64,000 nucleotides of DNA, taken from Candidatus Heimdallarchaeota archaeon. Lineage in GTDB: Archaea; Asgardarchaeota; Heimdallarchaeia; Heimdallarchaeales; Heimdallarchaeaceae. Location: NCBI GenBank assembly GCA_030603365.1, contig JAUVXV010000011.1, positions 1 through 64,000 of the forward strand, in the 5' to 3' direction. The translations under genes were made by a program, and so were the position numbers. The notes beneath the pieces were generated by a model. The model did not search any database, was not told the DNA's origin, and saw nothing but the letters and a program-made list of their open reading frames with translations. This document shows positions 5,294-40,209 of this stretch, in pieces. The first letter of the stretch is position 1. Each line of letters starts with the position of its first letter.

Positions 5294-5312
5294 CAGATTT
5301 GATGTAATATGT

Positions 5313-6317: not shown

Positions 6318-6335
6318 CAAACAAGAGGAATAAAT

Positions 6336-7312: not shown

Positions 7313-7317
7313 CAAAC

Positions 7318-7386
7318 ATGACAGCTATTGTATTATCAAAATACAGATTAATTATTGTTCTTCAGCTCCAAAAAGTAGAAAAAACA
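7318..7386 (+). pseudogene. MDR N-terminal remnant
   Basis: MTAIVLSKYRLIIVLQLQKVEKT is a decayed [23 protein letters not shown]. Confidence 0.65.
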
Positions 7387-7461
7387 ATCTTAGAGTTTTT
7401 GGTAAGTTTTAACTGTCAAAAAAAGAAAAGAATTTAATAACTCAAAAAGAGAAGTTTTCAT

Positions 7462-7917: not shown

Positions 7918-7930
7918 CTGCGCGCGATAA

Positions 7931-7958
7931 ATAAACAAGAATAAACAAGAATAAACAA
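7931..7958. repeat. 10-bp tandem repeat (ATAAACAAGA x2.8)
   Basis: Seen directly in the sequence. Confidence 0.8.
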
Positions 7959-8112
7959 TTCTAACTAGAGCTTTGATTTGTCTCTATGTAAAATTTGATT
8001 TTCGCGAAAATTTATATACAAATTAAATTCTAAAACGTTTGGATAATAAAGCAGTTATTATCTCAAATTACAGACCACTGGATATTTCTGATTTAAAAAA
8101 TCAGTAGTTTAA

Positions 8113-8913: not shown

Positions 8914-8960
8914 ATCGGCTTTGAGGAAATCTTATATTTTACTTTGTTGACAAATAACTT

Positions 8961-9866
8961 ATGAAAGCTGTAATACAAACAAAACAAGGACCGCCAGATG
9001 TTCTTCAGCTCAGAGAAGTAGAAAAACCTACTCCTAAAGACAATGAAGTATTAGTGAAAATATATGCAACATCAGTAACATTTGGAGATGTAATGCTTCG
9101 AAAAATTCCTCTAGTTTTGTCCATCATCTTCAGTATGATGGGGATGAAACGAAGGAAAATTCCAGGCCATGAGTTTGCAGGAATAGTTGAAGCTGTAGGT
9201 AAAGATGTTAAACGATTTAAGAAAGGTGACGAAGTTTTTGGATCTACCACTGCATTGAAACAAGGTTCTTATGCAGAATACATCTGTGTCCCTGAGGAAC
9301 GAAAAGAAGGAGTAATGGATATTAAACCAAGTACTATGAGTTTTGAAGAAGCGGCTGCAGTTCCAATTGGTGGAATTACAGCCTATCATATTCTTGGAAA
9401 AGCTGACATTCAAAAAGGACAGAAGGTTCTGATCTATGGTGCTTCTGGTAGTGTAGGAAGTTATGCTGCTCAGTTTGCTAAAGCTTTTGGAGCTGAGGTT
9501 ACTGGTGTTTGCAGTACCAGCAAAATAGAGATGTTGAAATCTATGGGAGTAAATAAGATCATTGACTATACTAAAGAGGATTTCACTGAAAATGGTTTGA
9601 CTTATAATGTTATTTTTGATGGTGTAGCAAAGATATCTAAATCATATTGTAAAAACTCACTCACAAAAGATGGGATCTATCTTTCTGCCAGATCTTCTAC
9701 AAAAGAAAAGAAAGAGTATCTACCAGTCTTTAAAGAGCTTAGTGAGGCAGGAAAACTGAAACCAGTTATAGATAGAAGCTATCCTTTGAAAGATATTGCA
9801 GAGGCACACAGGTATGTTGAAGAAGGACATAAAAAGGGGAATGTGGCAATACAAGTACAAGATTAA
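8961..9866 (+). CDS. MDR oxidoreductase (copy 4)
   Basis: Constant blocks; GASGSVG motif. Confidence 0.92.
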   Translation: MKAVIQTKQGPPDVLQLREVEKPTPKDNEVLVKIYATSVTFGDVMLRKIPLVLSIIFSMMGMKRRKIPGHEFAGIVEAVGKDVKRFKKGDEVFGSTTALKQGSYAEYICVPEERKEGVMDIKPSTMSFEEAAAVPIGGITAYHILGKADIQKGQKVLIYGASGSVGSYAAQFAKAFGAEVTGVCSTSKIEMLKSMGVNKIIDYTKEDFTENGLTYNVIFDGVAKISKSYCKNSLTKDGIYLSARSSTKEKKEYLPVFKELSEAGKLKPVIDRSYPLKDIAEAHRYVEEGHKKGNVAIQVQD

Positions 9867-9901
9867 AGTAGCTAGAGAGTATAATCTGAAATCCACTGAG
9901 G

Positions 9902-10540
9902 TTGCATGAAATGAACAAATCTGAGAAGTTTTGGGATAAAAGAGCTGTTAAGTATGATAAGGATGAAAAAGACTGGTCACAAACCTACAATAAAGCTGTT
10001 GAAAACACTAAGAAATATCTCAATAATGATGATACTCTACTAGATTTTGGATGTGGATCAGGAATTCTAACCTTACGTTTTACTGATTTAGTGAAAGAGA
10101 TTCATGCAATAGACATCTCCTCAAAGATTATTGAAGCTGCAAAAGAAAGAGCAAAAGGAAACAATATAGAGAACATAAGCTATGTACAAACAACTATTTT
10201 TGATGAGAGATATAAGAAAGAATCATTTAATGTGGTTTTAGCTTACAACATCTTACATCTGGTAGAAGATATTCAAAGAACTATACAAAGAATATACGAA
10301 ATACTAAAACCTGGAGGGATGTTTATTTCTGAAACAGTTTGCTTAAGAGAAAAGAAATCTTTTTCTAGTAAACTAATAGTTTTCATAAGTAAAACGAAAT
10401 TAGTACCACCAGTGGAAAATTTGAAATCCACTGATTTAGAAAATATGATTATAGACTGCGGTTTTGAAATTATTGAAACTGAAATCTTAGGACAATCTGT
10501 GCCCAACTATTTTGTTGTTGCAAAGAAGATAGGAGTTTAA
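9902..10540 (+). CDS. Class I SAM-dependent methyltransferase
   Basis: LLDFGCGSG, IDIS, LKPGG motifs. Confidence 0.9.
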   Translation: MHEMNKSEKFWDKRAVKYDKDEKDWSQTYNKAVENTKKYLNNDDTLLDFGCGSGILTLRFTDLVKEIHAIDISSKIIEAAKERAKGNNIENISYVQTTIFDERYKKESFNVVLAYNILHLVEDIQRTIQRIYEILKPGGMFISETVCLREKKSFSSKLIVFISKTKLVPPVENLKSTDLENMIIDCGFEIIETEILGQSVPNYFVVAKKIGV

Positions 10541-10542
10541 TC

Positions 10543-11057
10543 TTAAAAAGATGAATGGCAGTACTCTTGGATAGGGCAGGAAGGACATTTCACCTTTATC
10601 AAATACAGGAAATTACCCACTAGCATGATTATGAATCCAACTAAAGCTATTATTGCTAAATAATCGAAATCCATGAAAAATGAAACTATTGTTAGAATAA
10701 TTGGTAATATCCATACTAAAAACATTAACCACACCCAGTTTTTTTGACCTACATGTTTATGAAGAAGTGTCTTACTCCATTTTTCAATAGAAGGCAGCTT
10801 CTCAGTAGCATCCTTTTGCTCTTTATCTACTGAAGTATCTTTAGTTTTGAAATAGCAATATTTACACATCGTAAATGGCATTATCAAGAAGTAAAACACA
10901 AGTGAATAGATCAGATACCCCACAGATTGAGGTAATATATCCCCCAAGTTCCAAAAGCCATTAGAATTATACTAATCGAAACAGGTGTAGGTTTATAGAA
11001 TGGACACCGCGGGATAAATCCCAAAATGAATTGACTAGATTGTTTTTCATCTGGCAA
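10543..11057 (-). pseudogene. Cys-motif membrane protein, frameshifted paralog of 18283-18813
   Basis: Begins MPDEKQ..GFIPRCPFYKPT (TTG at 11057); 10-nt deletion between CCCACA repeats near 10925; C-terminus KCPSCPIQEYCHSSF. Confidence 0.8.
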
Positions 11058-11207
11058 ATTGAGTTACGAACAGATTGTAGCTAGATATTATTTAAACTTA
11101 ACTAGCTCCTTCATTTGAAGAAATTATTGAGTTATTCTAGATTTAAATTAAAGTTAAAATAACAAAAAGTAAAAAGAAAAAGAGATACTATATTCACTTC
11201 TATACTT

Positions 11208-12614
11208 CTAAATTGAATCAGCTTCAAGTAAGAATTGTAAAGCAATATCATTAATTCTTTGAACTGTGTTTGTATCTATTTGTTCTTCTGCAAAATCTAG
11301 AAGTAAGCTCATCTTATTTGAACATGTAACTACTCCAACTACCAAATTAACTGTCACCAAAGGAAAACCAGCACCTGGGAGAACAATTAACCTATCTAGC
11401 TCTAAATTCCCATAGAGTTTTGGGAAATTCATCCGAGTTAGATTTGTAACAGCTGTTCCAATATTAACATTCTCAATAGAATGTGAGTTACTACGTTTAA
11501 ACAAATTATAAGCTGTATCTTGGCACTTACTGAAAGATGATATTTTCTCGTATCTAGATTGGTCAGATGTTACAATATGTCCAAGTACTTTGTAGGGTTT
11601 AGATTCAATTATACTTGCTTCTAATTTTGTAAATAGTAAAGGATTTCTGAAGAAATTCTGATTGTTGTATAATTTCTTAATTTTCTTGTGGAAAGATCTA
11701 GCATTGTCCCACACGCTCTTCTTAAGATTGTACTTATATTCAAGATCTACTACAGTTGCATAGAAACCCATTCCCTCTCCGGCAGAAGGTACTAATTTAG
11801 ATCTTAAGTCAGCAGCAACTGCAACCTTTGAGTTGTGTGGTGTGTCCCCTTGAATAATTTTCTGCGCTCCAATGAATGCTGCTGTTATTGCTGAGTTGAC
11901 TGTTACTTTGTTTGCTTTACAATTTTTGATTAATCTATTGGTTTCTTCTTCTGTAAGTTCAATAGAAATAGTACTGTGGGTGAAATTCTTCCAATATGCT
12001 TCATGTAAGTTTTCATAATCCTCAAGATCAAAAATAACTTCTTCTTGCTTCCATTTACTATTAATTCTTTCTAGTAGTTTTGTAATTAGTCCGCTTAATT
12101 CATGTTCTTCAGGAATGGTTTGTCTTGTCATAGGAAAAACATCAGTTAATATCTCAACTTCCTTTCCTGAATCTCCAAGATGTTCCATTAGATCTCTTGC
12201 AATAAACGCGAGTGATAGTCCATCACAAATAACATGATGGCAAAAAATCATAACATCAGAAACATTTTCTGATTGTATTAAGTAAATTCGAGTTAAAGGA
12301 TACTTATCAAATTCAAAAGATATCCTACATGCTTGATTATACACTTCTATCCAGGTATTATTGTCAACTCTAGTAATAACGTCAACTGGTATTAGTTCTA
12401 CTCCTTCCGATGTAAACCAAAATTCTTGATTTTCATCCATTTCAATTCTAACTTGTAGAAGTGAATGGCGTTGTTGAACCTTAGTAACTGCGTTCCTTAA
12501 CATGTCTTCTGTAACTGTTCCTTTGATTCTAACAATCATAGAAACAACAGAATAGGGGGAAATATTCAACATTCTTTCCCATGCAGTTATTTTACGTTTG
12601 TAATTCTTGTTCAT
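11208..12614 (-). CDS. Condensation-domain / alcohol acetyltransferase-like CoA-dependent acyltransferase
   Basis: HHxxxDG motif (CHHVICDG), VTVNS and ADLR motifs. Confidence 0.8.
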   Translation of the reverse strand: MNKNYKRKITAWERMLNISPYSVVSMIVRIKGTVTEDMLRNAVTKVQQRHSLLQVRIEMDENQEFWFTSEGVELIPVDVITRVDNNTWIEVYNQACRISFEFDKYPLTRIYLIQSENVSDVMIFCHHVICDGLSLAFIARDLMEHLGDSGKEVEILTDVFPMTRQTIPEEHELSGLITKLLERINSKWKQEEVIFDLEDYENLHEAYWKNFTHSTISIELTEEETNRLIKNCKANKVTVNSAITAAFIGAQKIIQGDTPHNSKVAVAADLRSKLVPSAGEGMGFYATVVDLEYKYNLKKSVWDNARSFHKKIKKLYNNQNFFRNPLLFTKLEASIIESKPYKVLGHIVTSDQSRYEKISSFSKCQDTAYNLFKRSNSHSIENVNIGTAVTNLTRMNFPKLYGNLELDRLIVLPGAGFPLVTVNLVVGVVTCSNKMSLLLDFAEEQIDTNTVQRINDIALQFLLEADSI

Positions 12615-12746
12615 TTTAACTAATCCTGTAGTTTAGTTTTTTCATGCAATTTTCTTGCTTCGTGGACGCATTGTACAGTCGCATATATAAATATATTCTT
12701 AAATTTCTAAAATTTCAGAAAGTTTATAAATGATTAATAACAACTA

Positions 12747-13874
12747 TTGTTAACCACTATGAAATCTGAAAAAATAAAAAAAGAGTTCATTCAATTTATG
12801 GAGGATTCTCACAAGAATCTGATTTTTCCAAAAAACTTCATTGGTTGTATGATGTCAGTTTTTATTGAACAGAAACTAGTGACTCAAGAACGAGTTATGG
12901 AATTAACAGGATATTCATTATCAACTGTATCTCAGATGTTAAATTTGATTCAAAGAAATATGCGTTTAGATAGGATCAAAGAACCAAAAATAAGAAAAAA
13001 ATCGTATACATTTTATCTCCCCCCACGAATATTTATGTTTGACTTTTTTCAGATAATTATAGAATCTTTTATTGATAAGATTGAATTTGTTTTACCAATT
13101 ATTGAAGAACTCAATCAGTATACCAACAAACATGAAGCTTTTCTTAAATTTCAAAATTTTCTCAAACAATTCTATGAGAAGTCGAATATTTTTCTGAGTT
13201 TGCATACAGATACTTCTAAGGAAATGAAAGAATTAATTCTCTCTAATTCACAAAATGAATCTTCTTTGGATGACAGCACTCTACAGGAATCACTAGAGTA
13301 TTCGAAGAAGATAAAAGAGATTTTTAAACTGCCATTAGAACCAAAGGACGATTCATTTCAAGCTATACAGTCAGAAGAATTACTTAAATCATATATTGAG
13401 CTAAAGAATAGATTCTATCAACAATTTCGAGCAACTCTTCAAACATCTCAATTAATGACCGCTCGAAGTATAATAGGTACTGAACTGTTATTAGAAAATA
13501 GACCAATGACTCAAGTGGAAATTGAAGAAAATACTCATCTGGCTAGATCGCTTATATCTGAAGCCTTGAATCTTCTTCTAGAATATAGAATGGTCAAGCT
13601 AATTAAGAAATCTGGTGACAGGAAGAATTACTATCTGATATACCAGTCTTGGGATGTTAGAATGATTAATCGAATTCGAGCTTCTCAGAAACATGCAAAA
13701 AATATTAGAATGAAGTTATACAGCTGGATGGAGGAACTTAAACAAGATAAAGCGAATGAAGATGCTAAATCTTTATTGACTACGCTATCAGAAATACATC
13801 ATTCTTATGCTAAATTTGAACAATTTTACAAGATTCTTGAATTGAGATATTTCAAAAGATATGTAAAAGATTGA
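12747..13874 (+). CDS. Tandem GbsR/MarR-like winged-helix regulator
   Basis: Two HTH units: TQERVMELTGYSLSTVSQML and MTQVEIEENTHLARSLISEAL..GDRKNYY. Confidence 0.7.
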   Translation: MLTTMKSEKIKKEFIQFMEDSHKNLIFPKNFIGCMMSVFIEQKLVTQERVMELTGYSLSTVSQMLNLIQRNMRLDRIKEPKIRKKSYTFYLPPRIFMFDFFQIIIESFIDKIEFVLPIIEELNQYTNKHEAFLKFQNFLKQFYEKSNIFLSLHTDTSKEMKELILSNSQNESSLDDSTLQESLEYSKKIKEIFKLPLEPKDDSFQAIQSEELLKSYIELKNRFYQQFRATLQTSQLMTARSIIGTELLLENRPMTQVEIEENTHLARSLISEALNLLLEYRMVKLIKKSGDRKNYYLIYQSWDVRMINRIRASQKHAKNIRMKLYSWMEELKQDKANEDAKSLLTTLSEIHHSYAKFEQFYKILELRYFKRYVKD

Positions 13875-13908
13875 TAAAATGAAATAAAAAAAGAAAATCT
13901 CATGACTT

Positions 13909-14610
13909 TTAATCAATGACACATTTATTCCATTCATCTTCATAAAACTCAGGATTCGCAAGTAAAGCAAAGATTTGAAGAATATCAATTGCTTTACTCA
14001 TTTCTACATAGGTCTTACCTGTAAAGAGATCAGGATTTTTTTCACCAGTTTCTTCCAATATAGTAGAAACTTCATTTACCACTTTAGTGAAAATACCTAT
14101 AATTAAACCTCTTAAACAATCTTCTGAGGATAATTTGAATTTAGGATAAATCTTGAGTATACTACTTACAAAATCAATGATTTCATTACCAGCATCAGTT
14201 TCCCAGTATTTTCTAGACAAATCAATAGTATAAAATACTGTACCAGTTCGACTGTAGAGAATTTCAGTTGCATTTTTAGCCATATCAACTCTTCGACCAG
14301 CTTGAGAAACTAATCCTCCTTTTTCGAGAAGTTTAACGTAACGATAAATTGTCATTTCATTCTTAGGTTTTTCAACAAGAAGGTTATAACCTGCTCTTAT
14401 TTCCTTAATAGTTAAAGGACCACTCCTTAGGATATTAATAATTGGGAATAATTTCTTATCATTAAGTAAATCATACACTTTTCGTTTTACTTTTTTTTCT
14501 TCTCCAGATTTAGGGTCTTTAATAACTTCTTCGAATTCATCCTCTCCTGTGATAATTTTCACAAAAGGAGGAGAATATGTTATGACATTTTGTGTAGCCA
14601 TTTTACTCAC
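13909..14610 (-). CDS. ArsR-like winged-helix protein (archaeal type)
   Basis: GPLTIKEI..MTIYRYVKLLEKGGLV..TEILYSRT. Confidence 0.7.
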   Translation of the reverse strand: MSKMATQNVITYSPPFVKIITGEDEFEEVIKDPKSGEEKKVKRKVYDLLNDKKLFPIINILRSGPLTIKEIRAGYNLLVEKPKNEMTIYRYVKLLEKGGLVSQAGRRVDMAKNATEILYSRTGTVFYTIDLSRKYWETDAGNEIIDFVSSILKIYPKFKLSSEDCLRGLIIGIFTKVVNEVSTILEETGEKNPDLFTGKTYVEMSKAIDILQIFALLANPEFYEDEWNKCVID

Positions 14611-14771
14611 TTAAACATTTATTATGTTATGTTTATTTTAGAGATTAATAAACTTTTTTATTTATTTGTAGCACAAATATTATTTTTTTAGGCAAATCCT
14701 TCTTTTTTCGAAATGTTTATATAAATAAATGTTAAAGTGTTCTCAAGAACTGAGAAAATGGTGAAGGAAAA

Positions 14772-15008
14772 ATGAAAACTGAAATCTATCATCGAAATCA
14801 GAACACAGTTGGATACTCTAAGAGAGAAACTACTGGAGTTTATGAAAGGCTTAAAGCTATTATTAGAAGAATTAAATTGGTAAATAAGGCACCAAAAAAG
14901 GTACTTACTTCAAAGCAATTTAATACAACAACAATCGCTCATCAAGTTCGAGAGCAACAAGATAGTGTAATTATACAATCACTACTATTGTTTGGAACTA
15001 GTCGCTAA
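14772..15008 (+). CDS. Small hypothetical protein
   Basis: ATG after GGTGAAGG; TTTATATA box upstream. Confidence 0.5.
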   Translation: MKTEIYHRNQNTVGYSKRETTGVYERLKAIIRRIKLVNKAPKKVLTSKQFNTTTIAHQVREQQDSVIIQSLLLFGTSR

Positions 15009-15043
15009 AACAATTGAAACAAGGTAAAATTGGAGGAATAAAA

Positions 15044-16021
15044 ATGAAAGCAATAGTATATGAAAAGTACGGACTACCGGAAGTTCTTCAGATTAAAGAA
15101 GTAAAAAAACCTGTTCCCAAAGATAATGATGTGCTGATAAGAGTATATGCTACTACCGCAACTCTATACGACTGTTGGGCGCGAAGTTGTACCGCCCCTC
15201 CTGGCTTCGGGCTTATGAGCAGATTATCGTCTGGTATCAGAAAACCAAAACAACCTATACTAGGGACTGAGTTAGCAGGGAAAATTGAAGCCGTAGGCAA
15301 AGATGTGAAAATATTTAAGAAAGGAGATCAAATTTTTGGATCTATAGCGATGAGTTTAGGTGCTTATGCAGAGTACATTTGTCTACCTGAGGACAAGGCA
15401 TTGGCACTAAAACCTGTCAATATGACCTACGAGGAAGCTGCCACTGTTCCACAAGGGGCATTAACCGCATTGTATTTTCTAAGAAAAGCAAATATTCAGA
15501 GCGGACAAAAAATACTTATCTTTGGCGCTTCTGGAGGTGTAGGTGGTTTTGCGGTACAACTTGCTAAGTATTTCGGAGCAGAAGTTACTGGAGTCTGCAG
15601 TACCAAGAAATTAGAGTTGGTAAAAGCTCTTGGAGCTGATAAAGTCATTGATTACACTAAAGAGGATTTTACAAAAAACGATGAGACATATGATATTATT
15701 CTTGATACAATAGGCAAGAGTTCAGTTTCACGAAGTAAAAAATCACTGAAGAAAAAAGGGTACTATCTTTTTACAACATTTGGGGTGCCAAAGCTTCTTC
15801 AGATTCTATGGCTTAATTTAACAAGCAATAAAAAAGCAATAGTTGGGCTCTTAGAAGAGAGAACTGAAGATCTAAATTTCCTTAAAGAGCTTATTGAGAC
15901 AGAGAAGATAAAATCGGTCATTGATAGAAGTTTTCCAATGGATCAAGCTGCGGAAGCTCATAATTATGTCGAAAAAGGGCTCAAAAAGGGACATGTAGTC
16001 ATAATTATTGAAGATAAATAG
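15044..16021 (+). CDS. MDR oxidoreductase (copy 5)
   Basis: GGAGG RBS; constant blocks; GASGGVG motif. Confidence 0.92.
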   Translation: MKAIVYEKYGLPEVLQIKEVKKPVPKDNDVLIRVYATTATLYDCWARSCTAPPGFGLMSRLSSGIRKPKQPILGTELAGKIEAVGKDVKIFKKGDQIFGSIAMSLGAYAEYICLPEDKALALKPVNMTYEEAATVPQGALTALYFLRKANIQSGQKILIFGASGGVGGFAVQLAKYFGAEVTGVCSTKKLELVKALGADKVIDYTKEDFTKNDETYDIILDTIGKSSVSRSKKSLKKKGYYLFTTFGVPKLLQILWLNLTSNKKAIVGLLEERTEDLNFLKELIETEKIKSVIDRSFPMDQAAEAHNYVEKGLKKGHVVIIIEDK

Positions 16022-16157
16022 GTATTCTAGAATCTTATATACCATTATTTTCATTTCATTACTTTTTTAGTAACTTATAAGGTGCAGAGACTTTTTTGAG
16101 AAAGACTATTAAGTTTAAAGCAATACTATTAATTTATGAAAATGAAAGCAGTTGTAT
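16007..16157 (+). repeat. MDR stop-spacer-start unit, copy 1, with a BRE/TATA-like box
   Basis: Aligns along its length with 17132-17281. Confidence 0.85.
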
Positions 16158-17146
16158 GCACAAAATACGGACCACCGGATGTTCTTCAGCTCAAAGAGGT
16201 AGAAAAACCTACTCCCAAAGCCAATGAAGTACTGATAAGAATATATGCGACAACAGTAACTTTATACGACTGTTGGATGCGAAGTTGCACAGCCCCTACC
16301 GGGTTCGGGCTTATCAACCGAATAGCGTCTGGGCTCAGAAAACCAAAGAAATCTATACTAGGGACTGAGCTAGCCGGGGAAATTGAAGCCATAGGCAAAG
16401 AGGTAAAACTCTTCAAGAAAGGTGACTAAGTTTTTGCAAGTACCTTTTGGGCAGATTTTGGTGCATATGCCGAGTACAAATGTATGCCTGAAGACGGGTT
16501 GGTGGCAATAAAACCAGCCAATATGACCTATGAGGAAGCCGCTGCTTTCCAACAAGGGGCATTAACAGCTATGGTTTTCCTTAGAGATAAGGCAAATATT
16601 CAGAGAGGACAAAAAGTTCTTATCAATGGAGCTTCTGGAGCGGTAGGTACTGCTGCGGTACAGCTTGCTAAGAACTTTGGAGCGGAAGTTACCGGTGTAT
16701 GCAGTACCACGAATTTAGAATTGGTGAAATCTCTGGGAGCTGATAAAGTCATTAATTACACTAAAGAGGATTTTACAAAAAATAACCAGACCTACAATAT
16801 TATTATTGACACGGTAGGCAAGACTTCGTTTTCACGTTGTAAGAAATCGCTAAAGCAAAATGGAACCTTTCTTCAAGCTGCCTCTAAGTCACTTATTCTT
16901 CAAGCATTTCAAACGCTTTGGACTTCAAAGATCGGCAGCAAAAAGGGAATGATTGCGACCACAGGTTTAAGGCCAATAAGCGAAAAGATCAAAGATTTAA
17001 TCTTCCTCACAGAACTGTATGAAGCTGGAAAGCTAAAACCAGTTATAGATAAAAGCTATCCTTTGGAACAAATTGTCGAAGCTCATAGCTACGTTGACAA
17101 AGGACACAAAAAGGGAAATGTAGTAATAACTATTGAAGATAAATAG
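16136..17146 (+). pseudogene. MDR oxidoreductase (copy 6) with a single in-frame TAA at 16427
   Basis: GGT-GAC-TAA-GTT-TTT where paralogs encode GD(Q/E)(V/I)F; the downstream ORF at 16484 is in the same frame. Confidence 0.88.
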
Positions 17147-17281
17147 GTAATCTAGGATTTTATTACCATTATTTTCCCTTCTTATTATTTTTAGTAACTT
17201 ATTAAGTGCTTGGAATTTTGGGAGAAACACTATTAAGTTTAAAGTAATACTGTCAATTTATGAAAATGAAAGCAGTTGTAT
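17132..17281 (+). repeat. MDR stop-spacer-start unit, copy 2
   Basis: Aligns with 16007-16157. Confidence 0.85.
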
Positions 17282-18225
17282 ATGAAAAATACGGAGAATT
17301 GGAGGAAGTTCTTGAATTAAAAAAGGTTGAAAAACCTTCTCCTAGAGACAATGAAGTATTAGTTAAAATTCACGCTACAGGTATAAATTTTGCTGATTTT
17401 GGTTTAGTTAAAGGAAAGCCTTTCTTGGGTCGCTTATGGTCAGGTCTGCTCAAACCAAAACACCCTATACTCGGAGCTGATATAGCGGGACGAGTTGAAG
17501 CAGTTGGTAAAAGCGTAAAGCAGTTTCAGACAGGTGATGAAGTATTCGGGGACATAGGTGGTGTTGGTTGGGGTGGTTTTGCAGAATATGTATCTGTTCC
17601 TGAAAATGTACTAGCACTGAAACCAGTTGATATATCATTTGAGGAAGCAGCAGCATTACCTCAAGCAACACTCGTTGTGATACAGGGTCTTCGTGATCAT
17701 GGACAGATTAAGCCAGGACAAAAGGTTTTGATTAATGGTGCGTCTGGTAATAATGGTTCACTTGCTGTGCAGGTTGCCAAATCATTTGGAGCAGAAGTGA
17801 CTGGGGTATGCAGTACTAAGAATTTAGAATTTGTGAAATCTCTGGGAGCTGATAAAGTAATCGATTACACTCAAGAAGATTTCACTAAAAGTGGGCAGCG
17901 TTATGACTTGATTTTTGATATAGCAGTAAGCCACTCGATATCTGATTATAAACGTGCATTGAATCCTAAGGGGGCTTACATTGCAGGCGGATTTAATCCA
18001 ACCTCTCTGTTCTTTGGTCCATTGATTTCAATGTTCGGGAGTAAGAAAGTGGCTTCATACATGGGCAGATTAAGCATTAAGGATCTGGAATTTATGAAAG
18101 AGCTTATTGAAGCTGGTAAGGTCGTACCTGTTATAGACAAACGTTTCCCGTTAACGGAGACTGCTGAAGCTATCCGATATTATAAAAAAGGTGCTCAAGG
18201 AAAAGTGGTCATAAATATAGTCTAG
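17260..18225 (+). CDS. MDR oxidoreductase (copy 7, more divergent subtype)
   Basis: LVKGKPF..PILGADIAG, GASGNNG, GKVVI motifs. Confidence 0.92.
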   Translation: MKMKAVVYEKYGELEEVLELKKVEKPSPRDNEVLVKIHATGINFADFGLVKGKPFLGRLWSGLLKPKHPILGADIAGRVEAVGKSVKQFQTGDEVFGDIGGVGWGGFAEYVSVPENVLALKPVDISFEEAAALPQATLVVIQGLRDHGQIKPGQKVLINGASGNNGSLAVQVAKSFGAEVTGVCSTKNLEFVKSLGADKVIDYTQEDFTKSGQRYDLIFDIAVSHSISDYKRALNPKGAYIAGGFNPTSLFFGPLISMFGSKKVASYMGRLSIKDLEFMKELIEAGKVVPVIDKRFPLTETAEAIRYYKKGAQGKVVINIV

Positions 18226-18282
18226 AAATAAACAGACTAATGATTTCATTACCATTCTTCTCTTTTTTTCATTTTATAGTTT

Positions 18283-18813
18283 CTAAAACGATGAATGGCA
18301 TTCTTCCCTGATTGGACAGGATGGACATTTTACCTTTAACATGTAAAAGATATATCCCACTAGCACAACTATAAATCCAACTAAAGGTATTATAGCAATA
18401 TAAGAGAAATTTCTAAAGAATGAAACGATTATCAGAACAACAGGTAAAAACCATATTATGACCATTGGCCATACCCAATTTTTTTGACCTACATGTTTAT
18501 GTAAATGCGATTTGCTCCATTTATCAACAGACAACAGTTTCTCGATAGCCTTCCCTGTCTCTTTATCTTTTGTAATTTCCTTTACTTTGAAATAACAGTA
18601 TTTACATATTGTTAATGGCATTAGCAAAAAGAAAAATAAAATAGAAAATATCAAATATCCCACAGCAGCCCACAAATTAAGATAATATATCCCCCATGTG
18701 CCAAGAGCTATCTTTACTAGAATAATCAGTAAATTTGTAGGTTTATAGAAGGGACATCTTGGGATTATTCCAAGAAAAGAGAGTTTGGGATCTTGCTCAT
18801 CAACCATACTCAT
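18283..18813 (-). CDS. Four-TM membrane protein with Cys motifs (PRCPF, CKYC, CPSCPxxxxCH)
   Basis: Intact ORF; paralog of 10543-11057. Confidence 0.75.
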   Translation of the reverse strand: MSMVDEQDPKLSFLGIIPRCPFYKPTNLLIILVKIALGTWGIYYLNLWAAVGYLIFSILFFFLLMPLTICKYCYFKVKEITKDKETGKAIEKLLSVDKWSKSHLHKHVGQKNWVWPMVIIWFLPVVLIIVSFFRNFSYIAIIPLVGFIVVLVGYIFYMLKVKCPSCPIREECHSSF

Positions 18814-18950
18814 TCATACTGGATTTATTTTACTAGTTATTTAAACTTAACTGGTTATTTTCTTTTAACAGTGGATACAACCATATTTTCTCTTAGGAAA
18901 TTCATTGTATTGCTCTTTAGAATTTAAATCGAAGTATATTAGACATTTTC

Positions 18951-19052
18951 AAAGGTTCCGTTGGAACAAATTGCTGAAGCTAATAGCAATGGTGATAAAA
19001 GCACAAAAAGGGAAATGTAGTCATAACTGTGGAACAAAAAAACAAAACCTAA
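18951..19052 (+). pseudogene. MDR C-terminal remnant
   Basis: PLEQIAEAN...[16 protein letters not shown] with a frameshift. Confidence 0.75.
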
Positions 19053-20828: not shown

Positions 20829-22256
20829 CCTTCAAAAAGAAGAGTAGTTATGACTAATGATTTTCCGTTATTCCGTTATCTATGTGCAATTTTCTGTGGA
20901 GTTTAAATAGTGTAGACTCATTAATTATGAGAAGCTGATGGCACAAGAAGTGTGGAGAACGGAAGTGATGGAAACCACTCCTCATCCAGCTCTTGCATAC
21001 TTGTGCTATCAAACCAAGAACCTCTACAATAGGACAATGTTTGTATTCAAACAGCATTACAATCAGAAGAACAAGTGGTTATCCTATCAACAACTAGATA
21101 GAAAACTGAAAAAAGAACAATGTTACAAAGTTTTACCCGCTCATACAGCACAACATACTCTCAAACTTCTTGTTCGTAACTGGAAGAGTTTTGGCAAAGC
21201 ATTGAAACAATTCCAAATCACTCCCCAAGCATTTCTGGGCAAACCTCGACCACCAACATACAAAGCCAAGAACGGACAACAGATAGCGATTTTCACTAAC
21301 CAACAAGCAAGAATAGACAAGGAACAAACTCTTAGATTACAAAAGACACCTTTCTCTATTAAGACTCGTTTGACAAACACTGTCAAACTCAAGGAAGTGA
21401 GAATCATTCCTCGAGGAGTAGGATATTCCATAGAGATAGTGTATAGTAAACTAGTTCCAGAAGTAGAGGTGAAGGGAACAAACATAGGAGCAATAGATCT
21501 TGGAGTCCACAACCTTCTCACTTATGTAGACAACATTGGGAGTAGACCGATTGTTGTTAAGGATGAAGGGAAAGGGATTAAATCCATCCTCAGGTTCTAT
21601 CTGAAAGAAATAAAAAAGTTACAACAAAAGTATGCACAACAACAGCACCTTACATTAAAACAGAATAATAGACTTGAATACGGTAAGAGGTTTCACAGAC
21701 TTCGTGAGATTAAGCGTAGAAAAGTTAAAAACTGGATTCACCAGATGAGTAGTAAGTTTGTGAAGCTGTGGGTGCAAACAGGAATTCAACAAGTCTATAT
21801 AGGTTATAATCCTCTCTGGAAGCAGCAGGTAAGATTAAGAAAGAAAACCACCCAGCTGTTTGTTATTCTTCCGTTTGAAAGATTCATCCATGCTCTCAAA
21901 TATAAAGCAGAAGAACAAGGGATAATAGTAGAGAAAATTGAAGAAGACTACACCTCCAAATGTAGCTTTCTTGATAATGAATTTCCTAAGAAATACAAGA
22001 GGTACAAAGGACGAAGAACCAAACGAGGGTTATTCAAAGCTGTAACAGGGCAATTAATCAATGCTGATGTAAATGGTGCATACAACATCTTACTCAAAGG
22101 CGATCCGCAAGCACTACCTTCTCGTAGTGTGGGCGGGGTAGGAGGATATGTGGTTTATCCCCATAGATGGAGCTTCGAGCTCTGATAAATCTAGGAAAAA
22201 GGTTTTAACGTGATGACGTAAAAACCTAACCATAACCTAATTGTCTAATGTATCAA
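20829..22256 (+). mobile_element. Non-autonomous TnpB-only element (IS1341-like); boundaries approximate
   Basis: Left junction set by the truncated host remnant; 3' hairpin AGGTTTTAACG..CGTAAAAACCT and TCAA at 22253-22256; no tnpA nearby. Confidence 0.6.
20938..22185 (+). CDS. tnpB: RNA-guided endonuclease TnpB
   Basis: KNLYN, AIDLG (RuvC-I), IGYN..WKQ, EEDYTSKCS, INADVNGAYNI (RuvC-III). Confidence 0.93.
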   Translation: MAQEVWRTEVMETTPHPALAYLCYQTKNLYNRTMFVFKQHYNQKNKWLSYQQLDRKLKKEQCYKVLPAHTAQHTLKLLVRNWKSFGKALKQFQITPQAFLGKPRPPTYKAKNGQQIAIFTNQQARIDKEQTLRLQKTPFSIKTRLTNTVKLKEVRIIPRGVGYSIEIVYSKLVPEVEVKGTNIGAIDLGVHNLLTYVDNIGSRPIVVKDEGKGIKSILRFYLKEIKKLQQKYAQQQHLTLKQNNRLEYGKRFHRLREIKRRKVKNWIHQMSSKFVKLWVQTGIQQVYIGYNPLWKQQVRLRKKTTQLFVILPFERFIHALKYKAEEQGIIVEKIEEDYTSKCSFLDNEFPKKYKRYKGRRTKRGLFKAVTGQLINADVNGAYNILLKGDPQALPSRSVGGVGGYVVYPHRWSFEL

Positions 22257-28070: not shown

Positions 28071-28266
28071 CATTAAGTTTTAGTCATTTTATGATGAGTA
28101 AATGAACTACTTATCTAGTTTGTTTATCCTTGTTGGAAAATATCTACAGTATTGATAACAAGTTCGTCATACAACTTCTTCTTTTGAAGAATGAGATGAG
28201 AAAAAATCATTAAGCAAGAATATCCAGAATTTATGATGTATATGAGTTTTTTGTGATGAGCTCAAG

Positions 28267-31873: not shown

Positions 31874-32148
31874 TATTGAATTAAAAGTGCTTTAAACTAA
31901 AGAAAACGTGAATTAGAAGAGCTCAAATACTTAATTGGTATAGTTAGAGATCTAAATAAACAAAAAGAATCAGAAAATACTCAGTGAGAAAGTGAGTTAT
32001 CCGTTGAAACAGAAGAGAAGTTGTATATAAGTTCAGGACTTTTTCGTCATTATCTTGGTCTGTAGTTCTCAATTTTACATCTTTTAAACCTTGTTGCAAG
32101 GTTGAATTCATTTTCAAAGATATACCTTCTTGTCAAGAGGACTTTCCT

Positions 32149-32173
32149 AAGAAGATGCCTTCACAACAAGGTT
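32149..32173 (-). repeat. 25-bp boundary motif, copy E
   Basis: AAGAAGATGCCTTCACAACAAGGTT, 20/25 to the consensus. Confidence 0.65.
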
Positions 32174-32357
32174 AACGTTACCAAATAATAAGAGAACGAC
32201 ATGAAAAGATTAGTATTGAAGAGATTAAGCAATATTCTTAAGAGTGATAAATTTATAACAGTCACAATAAAATAAATTATTACAATTTTATTTCTCATAT
32301 TTTTAGGAGTGGTAACTGCAACTCAAAGAAAGAAACCATCCTAAAATTTTCTTTTTT

Positions 32358-32382
32358 CAAACAGTATGTAGACAACGAGGTT
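32358..32382 (-). repeat. 25-bp boundary motif, copy A (overlaps the M28 stop codon)
   Basis: CAAACAGTATGTAGACAACGAGGTT. Confidence 0.7.
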
Positions 32383-33577
32383 ATATAGGTGCCATTTTGT
32401 TAAATTCAATTACTGTAGCTATTGTTGTTTGAGTAACCTTCTTGATGAAATCGAAGTCTAACTTATCAATTGTATCTGCTTTTGTGTGATGATATGGAGA
32501 ACGGAAATTTGCTGTATCTGTTATCATCAATGCAGGGATGTTTTCTTTCCAGAAAGGAGAATGATCTGAAAGAAGTAAATCATATAACCATTTAGCTATC
32601 TTCTCGAATTTGAAAGGTATTCTTGCCCACAGATAAGGAAGCTTAATGCCTTCGTTTTTACAGTTTTTGCAGAATATCTTTCCAAGTTCCCTAGAGTTTT
32701 TATCACTCACAACAGCTATAAAATCAACAATTCTTTTACGAGCTTTTACTTTGTATGATGGTAATAACAAAGGGTTCAATAAAGGAGGGAAAAACTGAGT
32801 GTTTTTTCTTTTAGTAGAATAGCCAATTGTCACTAAATTAATTACTCCTTTAATTTTCTTATCCACGTCTAAAGCTTTCTTAACCCAGTAGTCACTCCCT
32901 ACAAGACCAAGTTTGCCTACACTAGATGTTCTGGTAATGTGTGATCTAGTTTTTATTATATACGCTATGTATTCTTTCTCAGAATCAGTAAGATTGTCCT
33001 TAACCACTTCAAATGCTTTTTGCCACACATCTACTATTGGTTGACCCTTTGCTAGACCTAAAGTAACAGAAGAATAGAATTTCTTAAACATTTTTTGAGT
33101 ATGATAAGAGGTATAACGATGATTTTCATCAACAATTCCGAGCTCTAAAGCTTTATTTCGATCTCCTTGATCAAAAGTAGGACCTAATTCCTCTAGCGTG
33201 AAACTGATAAAACGAACATTTCCTGAAAAGTTTCTAGAAGCTAATATTCTTGCTACTTCTAGCATTGCGGCTACAGCTGAACCACTATCATTTGCCCCAG
33301 GAGAATTGAATCCAGTATCATAATGACTAGTAACCAAAATTTCAGGTTTAGAATCATCTCCCATATATCCTTCTATATTTCTAAAAACCATATCTGTACC
33401 TTCAACTTTGAAAGTTTGTTCATTTGTTTTTATACCATATTTTTTAAATTCTGAACTAATATAATCTGCTGTTTCATTCAGTTTTTGAGGATCAAAAATA
33501 TGGTGTTTAACACCTTCAATAGATAAGACATGTTGGAAAAGTTTCTCCACATCTACTTTATAAGGTATATCATTCAT
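32381..33577 (-). CDS. M28 family metallopeptidase (copy with altered motifs)
   Basis: SHYDT, GAND, LEE, SDH, YHH motifs; NLVTIG and LLSDH replace NLETIG and LRSDH. Confidence 0.88.
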   Translation of the reverse strand: MNDIPYKVDVEKLFQHVLSIEGVKHHIFDPQKLNETADYISSEFKKYGIKTNEQTFKVEGTDMVFRNIEGYMGDDSKPEILVTSHYDTGFNSPGANDSGSAVAAMLEVARILASRNFSGNVRFISFTLEELGPTFDQGDRNKALELGIVDENHRYTSYHTQKMFKKFYSSVTLGLAKGQPIVDVWQKAFEVVKDNLTDSEKEYIAYIIKTRSHITRTSSVGKLGLVGSDYWVKKALDVDKKIKGVINLVTIGYSTKRKNTQFFPPLLNPLLLPSYKVKARKRIVDFIAVVSDKNSRELGKIFCKNCKNEGIKLPYLWARIPFKFEKIAKWLYDLLLSDHSPFWKENIPALMITDTANFRSPYHHTKADTIDKLDFDFIKKVTQTTIATVIEFNKMAPI

Positions 33578-33628
33578 TTTACTTCGCAATCTTTAGAAAT
33601 TAAAGTTTATATACTTTTTCTAGTTTTT

Positions 33629-33653
33629 TGATAGGTAGGTTGACAATAAGGTT
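33629..33653 (-). repeat. 25-bp boundary motif, copy B
   Basis: TGATAGGTAGGTTGACAATAAGGTT. Confidence 0.7.
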
Positions 33654-33701
33654 TTTTCAGTACTCTAGGTTCATTATTCTAAACTTCTCTATATTGCTTG
33701 T

Positions 33702-34637
33702 TTAAAGTTTCTTTTGGACTACAGATATTACAACATTCCCCTTTTTGTGCCCTTTATCGACATACTTGTGAGCTTCGACCATTTGCTCCAAAGGATAACT
33801 TCTATCTATGAATGGTTTAATCTTCTCCTTCTCAATTAGATCTCTAAGGAAAGTCATTTTTTCTGTTGTTTCAGAAGTCATAGATTTTGCTGTAAGAAAG
33901 ATACCATTTGGTTTAAGTGCGCTTTTACATTTTTTGTCTGAAACCTTAACTACTGTTTCAAAAACAACATCATAAGTTTCACTACTTTGTGTAAAATCTT
34001 CCTTGGTGTAATCAATTATTTTATCAGCTCCTAACGATTTCACCATTTCTATTTTATCGGTACTGCATACACCAGTAACCTCAGCTCCAAAGTACTTAGC
34101 TAGTTGTACTGCATAACTACCAATACTTCCAGAAGCACCATAGATAAGAACTTTCTGTCCTTTCTGGATATTGGCTTTTCGAAGAATATGCAATGAAGCC
34201 ATACCTGCAACAGGAACTGCAGCTGCTTCTTCGTATGTTAAATTGGCAGGTTTTATTGCCACAACTCCCATCTTCCATTCTTCTGGCAGACACACATACT
34301 CTGCATAAGAACCTTGTTTCAACATAGTGGTAGTTCCAAAAATTTGATCACCTTTTTTAAACAGCTTGACATCTTTGCCTACTGATTCAACTGCTCCTGC
34401 AAACTCATAGCCTAGTATAGGTTTTCTGGGTTTTCGAATACCATACATTAACCGCAACGCGAAAGTAAAGAATTTGGAATCTGGGTGTTTACCTTTTCGT
34501 CCGTTCACAACTGCAGCGTTTACTGTTGTCCCATAAACTTTTACAAGTAGTTCATTGTCCTTGGGAGTAGGCTTCTCTATCTCTCTTAGTTCAAGAACCT
34601 CTGGTGGTCCGTATTTTTCATAAACTATTGCTTTCAT
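33702..34637 (-). CDS. MDR oxidoreductase (copy 8)
   Basis: Constant blocks; GASGSIG motif. Confidence 0.92.
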
Positions 34638-34702
34638 TATTGCTTCAACTTTGTTTAAGATTTTATGTTAAAAGCCTATATGCAAATAAATACTTAATGA
34701 TT

Positions 34703-35071
34703 TCACAAGAAAAATACCGTACTTGCATAGTAGATTGTTAGAGCATTAAAGACAAAGCTTACTGTGAGCAAAAATATGTCAAAAGGCTTATACCCTTTTA
34801 TTCCAGCAAGATTAAAGAGAAGAAAGAAACTAGCTATGACGATGTTTACTATACTATTAGCAGGAAATCCCAATATCAATGAAAGAAAAACCATAACTAT
34901 TGGAATCACCATTAATACTGCTATTCCAAACCACACTATCTGACCTACTTTCTTACCTTCTATTTCTCCAGGTGTTAATTCCCCTGCAAAAATTCTTAGC
35001 ACATCACCTAACAAATAACATAACATACAAGCTACCCATAAGATTGAAAGTATTATATTTAAATCTTCCAT
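34703..35071 (-). CDS. DUF6326-like membrane protein
   Basis: MEDLNIILSILWVACMLCYLLGDVLR..IPIVMVFLSL; true start probably the ATG at 35071. Confidence 0.75.
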   Translation of the reverse strand: MEDLNIILSILWVACMLCYLLGDVLRIFAGELTPGEIEGKKVGQIVWFGIAVLMVIPIVMVFLSLILGFPANSIVNIVIASFFLLFNLAGIKGYKPFDIFLLTVSFVFNALTIYYASTVFFL

Positions 35072-35121
35072 ATTCCAATTTGGTAGGTTAAGAAATAAAA
35101 ACTTTTGTAATTTTCTTAAAG

Positions 35122-35146
35122 AAGAAGGTATGTTGACAACAGGGTT
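35122..35146 (-). repeat. 25-bp boundary motif, copy C
   Basis: AAGAAGGTATGTTGACAACAGGGTT. Confidence 0.75.
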
Positions 35147-35184
35147 ATTTTTGGAACCTTTTACAAAAAAAAAGAAAAAATAAT

Positions 35185-36882
35185 TTACTCTATTTTTATT
35201 TCCTCTGGCAACACCATCCATACATGAGTATCCAAGAAGGGTTTTATCCAATCTTCTAGTGAGAAATTTATTTTTCCATCTTTATACCAAATAGGCACAT
35301 CAGGTTTAGCTTTGTAAATGTCTACAATTCTACATCTATCAAGATTAAGTTTCGCTATTTCTGCAGCTTTTTCAAAAGCTTTCTTTATACTTCCAAGTTC
35401 ATCAACTAGACCTATTTCTTTAGCATCTTTACCAGACCACACTCTTCCTCCGCAGTATTTTACAAATTCCTTTCTATCCATTTTACGGAATTCTGCTACA
35501 TGATCTAGAAATACATCATAGATTTCGTTTATCCCTTTGAAAACTATATTTCTTTCTTCTTCTGAAAAAGGTTTTTCTGAACTATAAATTCCAGCTCTTT
35601 CTCCTCTACGTAGAAAAACTCTGTTAATCCCTTGTTTTTTAAGACTTTCTTGAGTTATGAATTTTAAGTTAATTACACCAATGGAACCTGTTAATGTCAT
35701 AGGCTGAGATACAACCCAGCTTGAAGAAGTCGCAATATAATATCCTCCTGACGCAGCTACATCGCTGAAGTATGTAACAACTGGTTTCTTCTTAACTAGT
35801 TCTTTTATTGCTGATCTCATTGCTTCAGAGGCAACTGCAGAACCTCCACCAGAATTGACATGAAAAACAACAGCTTTGACTTTTTTATCTCGCTTTGCTT
35901 TTCTAAGAAGGTGTACAATAGTTTGATCTCCTGCTTGGTCATCACCAAAAATAGGGATGGGTAGCTTAATTGGAGGTTTCTTACTTTTACCATCTATTAT
36001 TAAACCTTCAACAGATATAACTGCTATTGTATTCTTAGCTGGCTTTGGTTTAGGGATTTTAAGCTTCTTTAGGGATTTTTCCCAAGTTGTTAATACTAGT
36101 TTCTTCCTTTTAGAATATTCTTTTTTTACATATTCAATTAAATCTTCTTCACCAATTATTGTGTGAACCAATCCTTTTACCAAAGAATCTTTAGCTGTAT
36201 AAGGAGCATTATTCACTAACTCAATAATCTCTTTTTCTGATTTATCTAGAGCCAAACTAACATCTGAAACGAAAGTGTCAAAAGCAGAATCAATGATAGC
36301 TTGATATTGCTCCCTATCTTCTTTGGAAATGCTACTCTTTGAGAACATATCCCCTGCAGATTTGTAAGGAGAAATTGGAACAGCATCAACAGATAGGTCT
36401 CTTTTTGCTAAAGCATCTTTCATAAGCAAACGAGATAACTGAAGACCTATTATGTTAAGATTTCCAGCTTGTTGAAGACAAATTTCATCAGCTGCAGTTG
36501 CTACATAAAATTTAAAGAAATCATATCCGTGAGCATAGACTATAACTTTTTTTCCAGTTTTTCTAAAATCTAGAAGAAGATCTCTAAGTGATTGCGTTTT
36601 AGCTAGTCCTTCAGGTTGTTTTCTTAAGTGAATAATTATTCCTTCAAATTTAGGTAACTTGCTTAAACGATTAAAATATTCTTCAAGAAAAGCAAGAGAA
36701 AGAATTTTGGAAGGGAATAATCTTTTTTGGATGAAATTCTTACGAGGTTCAGGTCTTTCATTCAGTGGTATATCTAAATCAAGATAAATCCATCGAAGTT
36801 TTTTTGATTTAATTCCTCTATGTAGGTTTCTAATCGTCCTTATAATGGATTTAAAAGCTCTATCAATTATCATTTTAGTCAT
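35185..36882 (-). CDS. sppA: Signal peptide peptidase SppA (long, 67K type)
   Basis: YKSAG, VNSGGGS, AASGGYY, TGSIGV, GRVWSG motifs. Confidence 0.92.
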   Translation of the reverse strand: MTKMIIDRAFKSIIRTIRNLHRGIKSKKLRWIYLDLDIPLNERPEPRKNFIQKRLFPSKILSLAFLEEYFNRLSKLPKFEGIIIHLRKQPEGLAKTQSLRDLLLDFRKTGKKVIVYAHGYDFFKFYVATAADEICLQQAGNLNIIGLQLSRLLMKDALAKRDLSVDAVPISPYKSAGDMFSKSSISKEDREQYQAIIDSAFDTFVSDVSLALDKSEKEIIELVNNAPYTAKDSLVKGLVHTIIGEEDLIEYVKKEYSKRKKLVLTTWEKSLKKLKIPKPKPAKNTIAVISVEGLIIDGKSKKPPIKLPIPIFGDDQAGDQTIVHLLRKAKRDKKVKAVVFHVNSGGGSAVASEAMRSAIKELVKKKPVVTYFSDVAASGGYYIATSSSWVVSQPMTLTGSIGVINLKFITQESLKKQGINRVFLRRGERAGIYSSEKPFSEEERNIVFKGINEIYDVFLDHVAEFRKMDRKEFVKYCGGRVWSGKDAKEIGLVDELGSIKKAFEKAAEIAKLNLDRCRIVDIYKAKPDVPIWYKDGKINFSLEDWIKPFLDTHVWMVLPEEIKIE

Positions 36883-36989
36883 TTAGTAAAACGAATCAAT
36901 GCTTATATTTATTTCTGTGTTTAAGAAAAAAAATTGAAAATGCTAGTTTTCAGAAAAATTTAAACATACTAATTAGGATAGTGTAAATT

Positions 36990-37664
36990 ATGTTCCGTCT
37001 TAAAAGCTATGAACCTCCTCTGAGGATTCAAATCACAATCAAGAACCTGTTTATTATCATGGCGTATGTTTTGAATCTAACATTCTTCTTAGCGATTGCT
37101 TATTATCCAGAGAAATATCAATTTTTTAGTGAACACATCAGTAATCTTGGTTCTTTCGAAAGTGCGTTGGGAGCAATTAACATTATTTCTATGAGGATAA
37201 TTATTGTTGGATTTGGAATATGTTCATTACTTCTTCTAGCTGTAGCAATACTGTATTTTACTAGAAGAGATCTATATCTTTGGCATGTTAAAGGAATTCT
37301 CTCACTAATAGTTGCTTTTGGTGTAGCTTGTGATGCAATACCTTCTGATCATCCAAAGCTTTGGGTTTTACATATAATTGGTGCATCCGCATTTATTGGT
37401 GGATTTGCAGCCTTTAACGCAGTATTGCAAATTTCTAGTACGATTAAGAAACGTAAAGATAAACAAGAAGAGGTTAACAAAGTAGATACTATTTGGGATA
37501 TATTCCTTTCCATTGTTTTGATACTTTTACTAATAGGATACTTCACAATCTTTGCATTAAATCTTGACAATTTAGGGATTAGCAATCTAGACGCAATATT
37601 CCAGAAAGTTATAATCTTTGCTGAGATTCTTGCGCTATACTTTATTGATAATAAAGATGTATGA
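36990..37664 (+). CDS. DUF998-like membrane protein
   Basis: HISNLG motif, LHxxGA, five TM helices. Confidence 0.6.
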   Translation: MFRLKSYEPPLRIQITIKNLFIIMAYVLNLTFFLAIAYYPEKYQFFSEHISNLGSFESALGAINIISMRIIIVGFGICSLLLLAVAILYFTRRDLYLWHVKGILSLIVAFGVACDAIPSDHPKLWVLHIIGASAFIGGFAAFNAVLQISSTIKKRKDKQEEVNKVDTIWDIFLSIVLILLLIGYFTIFALNLDNLGISNLDAIFQKVIIFAEILALYFIDNKDV

Positions 37665-37744
37665 AAGATTAAATTTAGTGAACTTCTCTTTTTCTTATTT
37701 TGATAAGTACTTTAGATTTTAGAAATCAATGATTCATTAATTAT
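37612..37744 (+). repeat. ~133-bp direct repeat, copy 1 (DUF998 3' end plus spacer)
   Basis: Near-identical to 40075-40209. Confidence 0.92.
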
Positions 37745-37924
37745 ACTCAAAATACTAGTTCAAACGATATAACAATAATCATATTTATCACAATTATAAT
37801 TCTTTCAGATTGACATACAGTTGTTTGAGAAAAACTAGATTTCAGATTATATTGCTTGAAATCCTCTTTGCAGAATTTACAAAGGAAACTAGTTGTCTCG
37901 CTTTTTCTATTATATCTAGGGCAT

Positions 37925-37949
37925 AAGAAGGTATGTTAACAGCAAGGTT
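37925..37949 (-). repeat. 25-bp boundary motif, copy D
   Basis: AAGAAGGTATGTTAACAGCAAGGTT. Confidence 0.75.
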
Positions 37950-40074: not shown

Positions 40075-40209
40075 TAATCTTTGCTGAGATTCTTGCGCTA
40101 TACTTTATTGATAACAAAGATGTATGAAAGATTAAATTTAGGGAACTTCTCTTTTTTTCTTATTTTAATAAGTACTTTAGATTCTAGAAATCAATGAGTC
40201 ATTAATTAT
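40075..40209 (+). repeat. ~133-bp direct repeat, copy 2
   Basis: Near-identical to 37612-37744. Confidence 0.92.

Follow-up and report, generated by a model that had tools for sequence, protein, structure and literature searches.

Introduction

Why should copies of one 25-bp motif separate a series of unrelated genes in an archaeal chromosome? The question is raised by a 64,000-nt stretch of the genome of a Candidatus Heimdallarchaeota archaeon (assembly GCA_030603365.1, contig JAUVXV010000011.1, positions 1 to 64,000; hereafter the window), in which five such copies lie between positions 32,149 and 37,949. Heimdallarchaeia, a group closely related to eukaryotes, have imported genes heavily. 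To our knowledge, the ways in which they gain accessory genes and change the order of these have hardly been described. A first-pass annotation had read the copies as recombination sites of an integron-like gene-capture system acting in trans or as stacked solo transposon ends, with a transcription-factor site as the alternative. Our answer, to which as a whole we assign a probability of about 0.62, is that the motif is the distal arm, or tail, of a conserved intergenic chromosomal attachment site, attB- or attI-like, that we call the platform. Handles starting with G, C, L and P denote genomes, contigs, loci and proteins, respectively, and G000 is the genome that contains the window.

The platform site and its tail copies

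The first reading missed that copy A is merely the right end of an 85-bp element (Table 1). In this platform site, two inverted 13-bp arms surround the core GAGGACT, and a further arm, R2, lies beyond them. The core site is preceded by a palindromic box and an AT-rich spacer of about 20 bp, whose length but not sequence is kept among the platform sites compared. The full element has 6-10-bp terminal inverted repeats. In a covariance-model search, 13 of 25 congeneric genomes and both genomes of the sister genus had a single strong copy each, never two, and the other genera searched had none; six additional platform sites came from metagenome contigs. The locus is fixed, with genes for a flavodoxin, a GH4 protein, an APH protein and saccharopine dehydrogenase on the left and pfk and core genes on the right, and the DNA abutting both platform edges varies between genomes. 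Assemblies often break at or inside platform sites (G006:C196, G008:C33, G016:C144/C200, G034:C31), which is consistent with within-population variation. In the literature, of which our coverage was incomplete, we found no description of the site or of the integrase family presented below.

All five copies of the motif are present where the first-pass annotation had placed them, intergenic and co-oriented. Copies B-E, hereafter solos, keep just R2 and the outer part of arm R. A position weight matrix (PWM) trained on the copies of relatives only and scanned over the 3.65-Mb genome (G000, 17 contigs) ranks C, D, E and A as the four best sites (25.6-30.2 bits), the next-best one, at 21.8 bits, lying within an open reading frame (ORF). 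Copy B, at 14.9 bits, falls within background; it is backed by orthology, as an identical right flank follows a motif in L178, and one Logan contig begins exactly at 32358. The same scan detected no solos elsewhere in G000. The weaker copy proposed at 43712 (1.2 bits, with 1146 genome sites scoring equally well) and the relics suspected near 28125 and 29250 (negative scores) belong to the background. As originally written, the consensus fits D and E (at most 3 mismatches; 0 expected, 100 shuffles) but not A, B or C, and its palindromic core TGTTG-A-CAACA is exact in D and inexact in the other copies. The gene order, sppA, DUF6326-MDR, M28, small ORF and M28 fragment, had been read correctly, as had the short ORF ending in a copy and the proximity of stop codons to the motif, with that of M28a overlapping B, that of the MDR gene 48 nt from C and that of sppA 38 nt from D.

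Table 1. Features of the platform and of the adjoining units, in window coordinates
Feature	Position	Strand	Remarks
Full platform site, 85 bp	32088..32172	+	box1, AT-rich spacer, 13-7-13 core site, extra arm
box1	32088..32102		palindrome ACCTT-N5-AAGGT; no strand
Left arm L of core site	32124..32136	+	
7-bp core GAGGACT	32137..32143	+	crossover of integrase-bearing elements
Right arm R of core site	32144..32156	+	
Copy A	32149..32173	+	outer half of right arm R plus extra arm R2 (32160-32172)
First unit, 184 bp	32174..32357	-	46-codon ORF ending inside A
Solo copy B	32358..32382	+	most decayed; overlaps M28a stop codon
M28 peptidase cassette gene (M28a)	32381..33577	-	
Solo copy C	33629..33653	+	promoter-side end of the M28a unit itself
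MDR oxidoreductase + DUF6326 unit	33702..35072	-	
Solo copy D	35122..35146	+	
sppA (S49) cassette gene	35185..36882	-	
Solo copy E	37925..37949	+	M28 3' fragment next

Cassette units across strains

Comparison with relatives shows that the locus is an integration hotspot whose one- or two-gene units have been reassorted between strains by exchange at the tail. The units, 0.2-4 kb in size, have their own promoters; their genes mostly face the platform, have their stop codon at the tail or close to it and are preceded by 50-600 bp of DNA of their own. Across relatives, the first slot behind the platform is held by at least a dozen different genes, and the 184-bp first unit of the window has no homolog among the loci retrieved. 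The same gene is found at different ranks. In G013, sppA opens the array; here it comes fourth, and in L172, L173 and L183 it takes the second or a later place. M28a heads the arrays of G011 and G017 and sits deeper in L172, in L178 and here. One M28 gene leads the array in G037; in G038 it comes second, after a Fer4 unit whose identity to the first unit of G008, a genome of another genus, is 99% from the first base of the motif onward.

Neither of the two findings that the first-pass annotation had named as refuting its reading was obtained: the motif-bounded genes are not fixed in relatives, and the motif is not a genome-wide operator. Breakpoints between genomes coincide with the motif. An alignment with G013 at 98% identity begins at the first base of D, and a high-identity alignment with L178 spans 32371-33653, ending at the motif. 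The SBP units of G007 and G011, and those of L178 and G004, are highly identical from motif to motif. In Logan contigs from two studies (runs X4 and X6), D is joined to 36931 without sppA, and the end of the MDR unit adjoins a full site in one of the contigs (run X6). The promoter-side solo of sppA is present in G018, L172 and L182 and is lost here at 36939. The tail copies at the promoter ends are distinct, of SBP, M28a and sppA types, and retain 13-28 bp. SBP-type ends have only about 13-14 bp in common with the platform, yet they are followed by at least four different right neighbours.

Other observations bear on the cargo. Defence-like genes lie beside the site in several loci (L088, which is G016:C200, L178, L179, L172 and L081): an AAA/AbiEii-type ATPase pair, a NERD-STAND NTPase and PIN toxin-antitoxin-like genes. 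The window also contains a large array of MDR oxidoreductase paralogs (4358-19052), to which the MDR gene of the cassette at 33702 belongs as an inverted member; the cargo thus draws on the accessory families of the lineage itself. An 82-bp stretch occurs at 37665-37746 and 40128-40209 with 93% identity, as part of a direct repeat that encloses copy E, the M28 fragment and a beta-helix gene. Elsewhere in G000, a box1-like palindrome is contained in each of two intergenic stretches that resemble each other, C6:65852-65923 and 71251-71322, which possibly delimit another unit.

The exchange interval

To locate the exchange, we compiled 32 junctions, which gave 11 pairs with a common right unit and 19 pairs with a common left unit. 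In the former, motif positions 15-16 and 19-28 are identical and agreement stays at background level through position 14. In the latter, agreement extends upstream and falls to background after motif position 22. This pattern implies that every unit has a tail copy of its own at the promoter end and that exchange takes place within AACAAGGT, an interval of about 8 bp (approximately 32165-32172 in copy A). Of 24 right units, 21 have TA or CA as their first two bases, and the exchange is resolved to an interval, not to a bond. The initial TA or CA is often the complement of the stop codon of the gene itself; in M28 paralogs, that codon is found at its native position. The motif is absent from native paralogs of the cargo genes.

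A tyrosine integrase at the central core

A second crossover point is the central core. A search for the core revealed hybrid sites whose sequence to the right of GAGGACT has been replaced completely (G007:C53, G016, G018 and L184). Both insert ends are on one contig in G016 and L184, where inserts of 1804 bp and 3154 bp, respectively, are bounded by a GAGGACT repeat with hybrid arms. The last gene of the L184 insert codes for a tyrosine recombinase (L184:1326-2084, minus strand); it has one TAG stop inside and ends about 60 bp before the right hybrid site. An intact homolog of 298 residues, P0057, is encoded on an unrelated ENA contig (L254), and downstream of its gene come the same arm as in L184, then the core, then the host R arm. 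In addition, L179 and L181 agree at 99.9% identity on the right, starting at the core, and have unrelated left flanks. Elements thus integrate at GAGGACT, duplicating the core, and a dedicated integrase family is found at their right end. The first-pass annotation had noted that no recombinase is in the window; an integrase gene of this family lies directly beside the hybrid site on two independent contigs, broken in L184 and intact in L254, and was not found in G000.

The members of this integrase family have about 297 residues and keep the catalytic residues of the R-HxxR-H-Y type (the first His being replaced by His/Asn variants). They score far below the XerA, XerC and XerD cut-offs; their sole relative in the PDB is XerA 5hxy (E 2e-7), and identity to XerA-like proteins is about 26%. 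The family is small and isolated, with four clusters at E<=1e-30 among 1.8 billion. Other members are encoded in G011:C55 and at G042:C1:29408-30277, the latter within a larger element of unknown genes. C-terminal remnants occur in G034, G001 and G013, and four congeners have remnants or one intact copy. An arm motif directly after the stop codon is common to family members. For P0055, P0056 and P0059, the same arm motif is followed by other sequences, which indicates that family members have different targets.

The family was not found in G000, so any activity here must be exerted in trans or be historical. A relaxed hidden Markov model (HMM) search detected no hidden tyrosine recombinase in this genome. 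A XerA-like gene on C11 was considered as the source of the enzyme and rejected, as it is patchy across the genus and its product is 26% identical to P0057. G000 also has five serine recombinases, none near the platform. No exact match to the core or to the element-end pattern was found in viral contigs. A solo TnpB gene (IS605/Cas12f-like) lies at 20938-22185 of the window, 10 kb left of the platform.

Paralogous sites and a possible host role

The platform has paralogs in the same genome. A second site (C1:607547-607629, L167), behind an M20 peptidase gene, has the same pentamers and spacing, with the core AGTCATC inverted relative to the flanks. It is present in 27 of 27 genomes of two genera, and the gene for integrase P0058 ends at its core. 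A third, intergenic ACCTT/AAGGT multi-box site (C1:14635-14720, L288-L300) contains AACAAGGTT and is conserved in the 13 relatives retrieved. Neither of these two sites carries a cassette stack. There may be a fourth multi-box site at C14:96109, with a similar one in another family (G019:C167).

The occurrence of the same pentamer boxes in two paralogous sites suggests that a host DNA-binding protein probably binds them and keeps the sites conserved. By doing so, it would provide reliable targets for integrases. A replication origin was also considered and rejected: the three cdc6 genes are on other contigs (C8, C13 and C14), and GC skew was uninformative.

Proposed mechanism and alternative explanations

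Each insertion probably displaces the former tail outward, and the solos are probably displaced or truncated att ends from successive insertions, fixed at unit ends. We infer that a site-specific enzyme also shuffles the cassettes at the tail; this would be a tyrosine recombinase from visiting mobile elements, probably of the P0057-type family, and the locus would work like an integron without a resident integrase. A stronger version has the locus as an independently evolved integron analogue, with a host-kept multi-box platform, cassettes that have promoters, that each terminate in a shortened copy of the platform and that are excised and re-inserted at AACAAGG/T by a non-IntI tyrosine integrase borrowed from visiting mobile elements, and no attC hairpins; we regard it as possible and rather doubtful.

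Several observations weigh against the proposed mechanism. No solo except that of L184 keeps the 7-bp core, and the length of tail retained varies between 13 and 28 bp; the direct tie of the integrase is thus to the central core and does not extend to the solos. Its family was not found in G000, and the 25 congeners yielded a single intact member. The assembled contigs examined contained neither a circular cassette nor an excision junction. Four of about 25 junction genes point away from the platform, and the promoter-side solo is lost in several units. Finally, the genomes are metagenome-assembled, and related ones are not independent.

The coreless solos leave room for a serious rival at the tail-exchange step, which we consider unlikely without dismissing it. 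Integrases would act at the central core only, the solos would be remnants trimmed by deletion or microhomology joins, and units would be exchanged by the host's own homologous or homology-facilitated recombination, which would use repeats of 13-28 bp and need no site-specific enzyme. The variable tail length fits this scenario, as do the region upstream of the G004 SBP gene, which has TTGACAA of the tail without the rest, and the fusion of sppA to the next gene at a 9-bp microhomology (36931-36939). It accounts less well for the SBP-type ends, which have acquired their different neighbours with so few common base pairs, for the narrowness of the exchange interval and for cassettes with identical tail alleles that cross genera (G008/G038). 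A separate, improbable alternative has the 85-bp element as a small structured RNA gene with its end duplicated in the solos, as at tRNA and tmRNA islands. The element does fold well (z -3.4 to -3.7), its outer stem is 92% paired on the minus strand versus 78% on the plus strand owing to G-U pairs, and a 7-nt core between inverted arms is the geometry of integrase sites in tRNA loops (PMC8371274). Nevertheless, covariation does not exceed that of shuffles on either strand (139/500 and 127/500), Rfam yields nothing meaningful at gathering or E-value level, there is no conserved promoter, and the flanks change at both edges. Moreover, the paralog keeps pentamers and spacing but not pairing, and its core has the opposite orientation. 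Hammerhead, SECIS, H/ACA and C/D RNAs were also discarded, since the motifs that they require are not conserved in the element.

The remaining alternatives are less plausible still. Insertion by a divergent Cas1-type integrase (aCas1), the tail being a CRISPR-like target-site duplication, would agree with a polar array, with tails of up to 28 bp, with the GTGGG allele common to the solos and the full site of G003 and with the aCas1 transposases described in Asgard archaea (PMC10691335). We find it very improbable: adjacent copies in one genome differ strongly (A versus B; full site versus solo in G038), tail alleles track the cassette across genomes, and the sole Cas1 match in G000, obtained with Pfam profiles that are not aCas1-specific, is sub-threshold and has an internal stop. 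Operators for the promoter that follows would fit the many solos whose distance to the next start codon is 50-65 bp, and the presence of three conserved multi-box sites in each genome implies that the host has a protein binding to them. However, solo-to-start distances range from 50 to about 600 bp, the genome is otherwise devoid of solos, as are the native paralogs of the cargo genes, and breakpoints inside the motif and integrase-flanked inserts would be left unexplained. The transcription-factor proposal of the first-pass annotation is thus largely refuted for the solos, which are not copies of a genome-wide operator and have very little chance of being operators at all; given the two conserved paralogs, it may still hold for the host role of the full site. 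Its stacked transposon ends, of DDE or miniature inverted-repeat type, can be set aside almost entirely. Apart from the terminal inverted repeats of the full element, nothing points to them: the site is single-copy and syntenic at a fixed locus, its flanks have no consistent target duplication, and no transposase adjoins any of 21 full sites.

Comparison with known systems

The locus does not belong to integrons, dif sites or transposons. It works like tandem accretion islands, and the way in which it shuffles units is that of an integron with delta-attI cassettes. Accretion has been described for integrative and conjugative elements (ICE), integrative and mobilizable elements (IME) and cis-mobilizable elements (CIME) (PMC5704250), and ssrA-associated genomic islands for Dehalococcoides (PMC3146451). 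As in those islands, there is a conserved single-copy target, with successive insertions, co-oriented direct repeats of the target end, variable cargo and integrase-less units that would be mobilised in trans; inserts are flanked by the core with hybrid arms, and an integrase gene lies beside an att end, although not in G000. Unlike in them, the target is an intergenic multi-box site with no Rfam hit and no covariation above that of shuffles and not a tRNA, tmRNA or protein-gene end, the units are single-gene cassettes of the sizes given above with two crossover points, the central core and the tail, and no transfer module was seen here.

Integrons with delta-attI cassettes (PMC12901181), and the archaeal clusters of attC sites lacking integron-integrases, or CALINs (PMC9668308), offer another comparison. 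Similarities are a platform whose accessory boxes precede what may be a terminal exchange point, cassette ends that are truncated platform copies of variable length, stop codons abutting the site, and cassettes that change position and neighbours. The tail core AACAAGGTT is one base off the delta-attI1 consensus AAACAAAGTTRRRY (PMC12901181), which is a resemblance and not a test. In contrast with integrons, no integrase gene lies beside the platform. Integron cassettes comprise promoterless genes expressed from Pc and facing away from attI, whereas the genes here have promoters and face the platform, and the right box is GTYA instead of GTTRRRY. P0055 and P0056 do not match the IntI profile TIGR02249, against which the only tyrosine recombinase of G000 scores 109 for a cut-off of 265, and copies B-E, which show no attC hairpin, fold no better than shuffles do (z -0.4 to +1.1). 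What stands of the integron-like proposal of the first-pass annotation is that the copies are recombination junctions of a capture locus served in trans; what falls is membership among integrons.

As for archaeal tyrosine integrases and XerA/dif (PMC8371274), the family described here has the classical non-suicidal layout with att beside the gene, a 7-bp overlap and an R-HxxR-H-Y type residue set, unlike its counterparts in that the target is not a tRNA. The site also differs from dif, being 13-7-13 and not 11-6-11, with at least three related sites instead of one per chromosome. PF00589 was not found in 7 site-bearing genomes, including G037 (95% complete). This absence, together with the wrong geometry, makes dif unlikely. 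More broadly, 16 of 31 genomes of the family have no PF00589 match, including some that are 93-95% complete, and the lineage may lack a conserved XerA.

Implications

We consider four things new here: the multi-box anchor in intergenic DNA, the paralogs of this anchor, the presence of two crossover points and the naming of an integrase. The analysis also brings to light three related non-coding sites in each genome, all of them conserved. For experimental work, the set of components is complete, comprising an attB, hybrids that are natural attL and attR sites, an attP that can be reconstructed and the intact integrase P0057. If the tail is indeed a second site-specific crossover point, integron-like shuffling of genes would have arisen in these archaea without IntI or attC.

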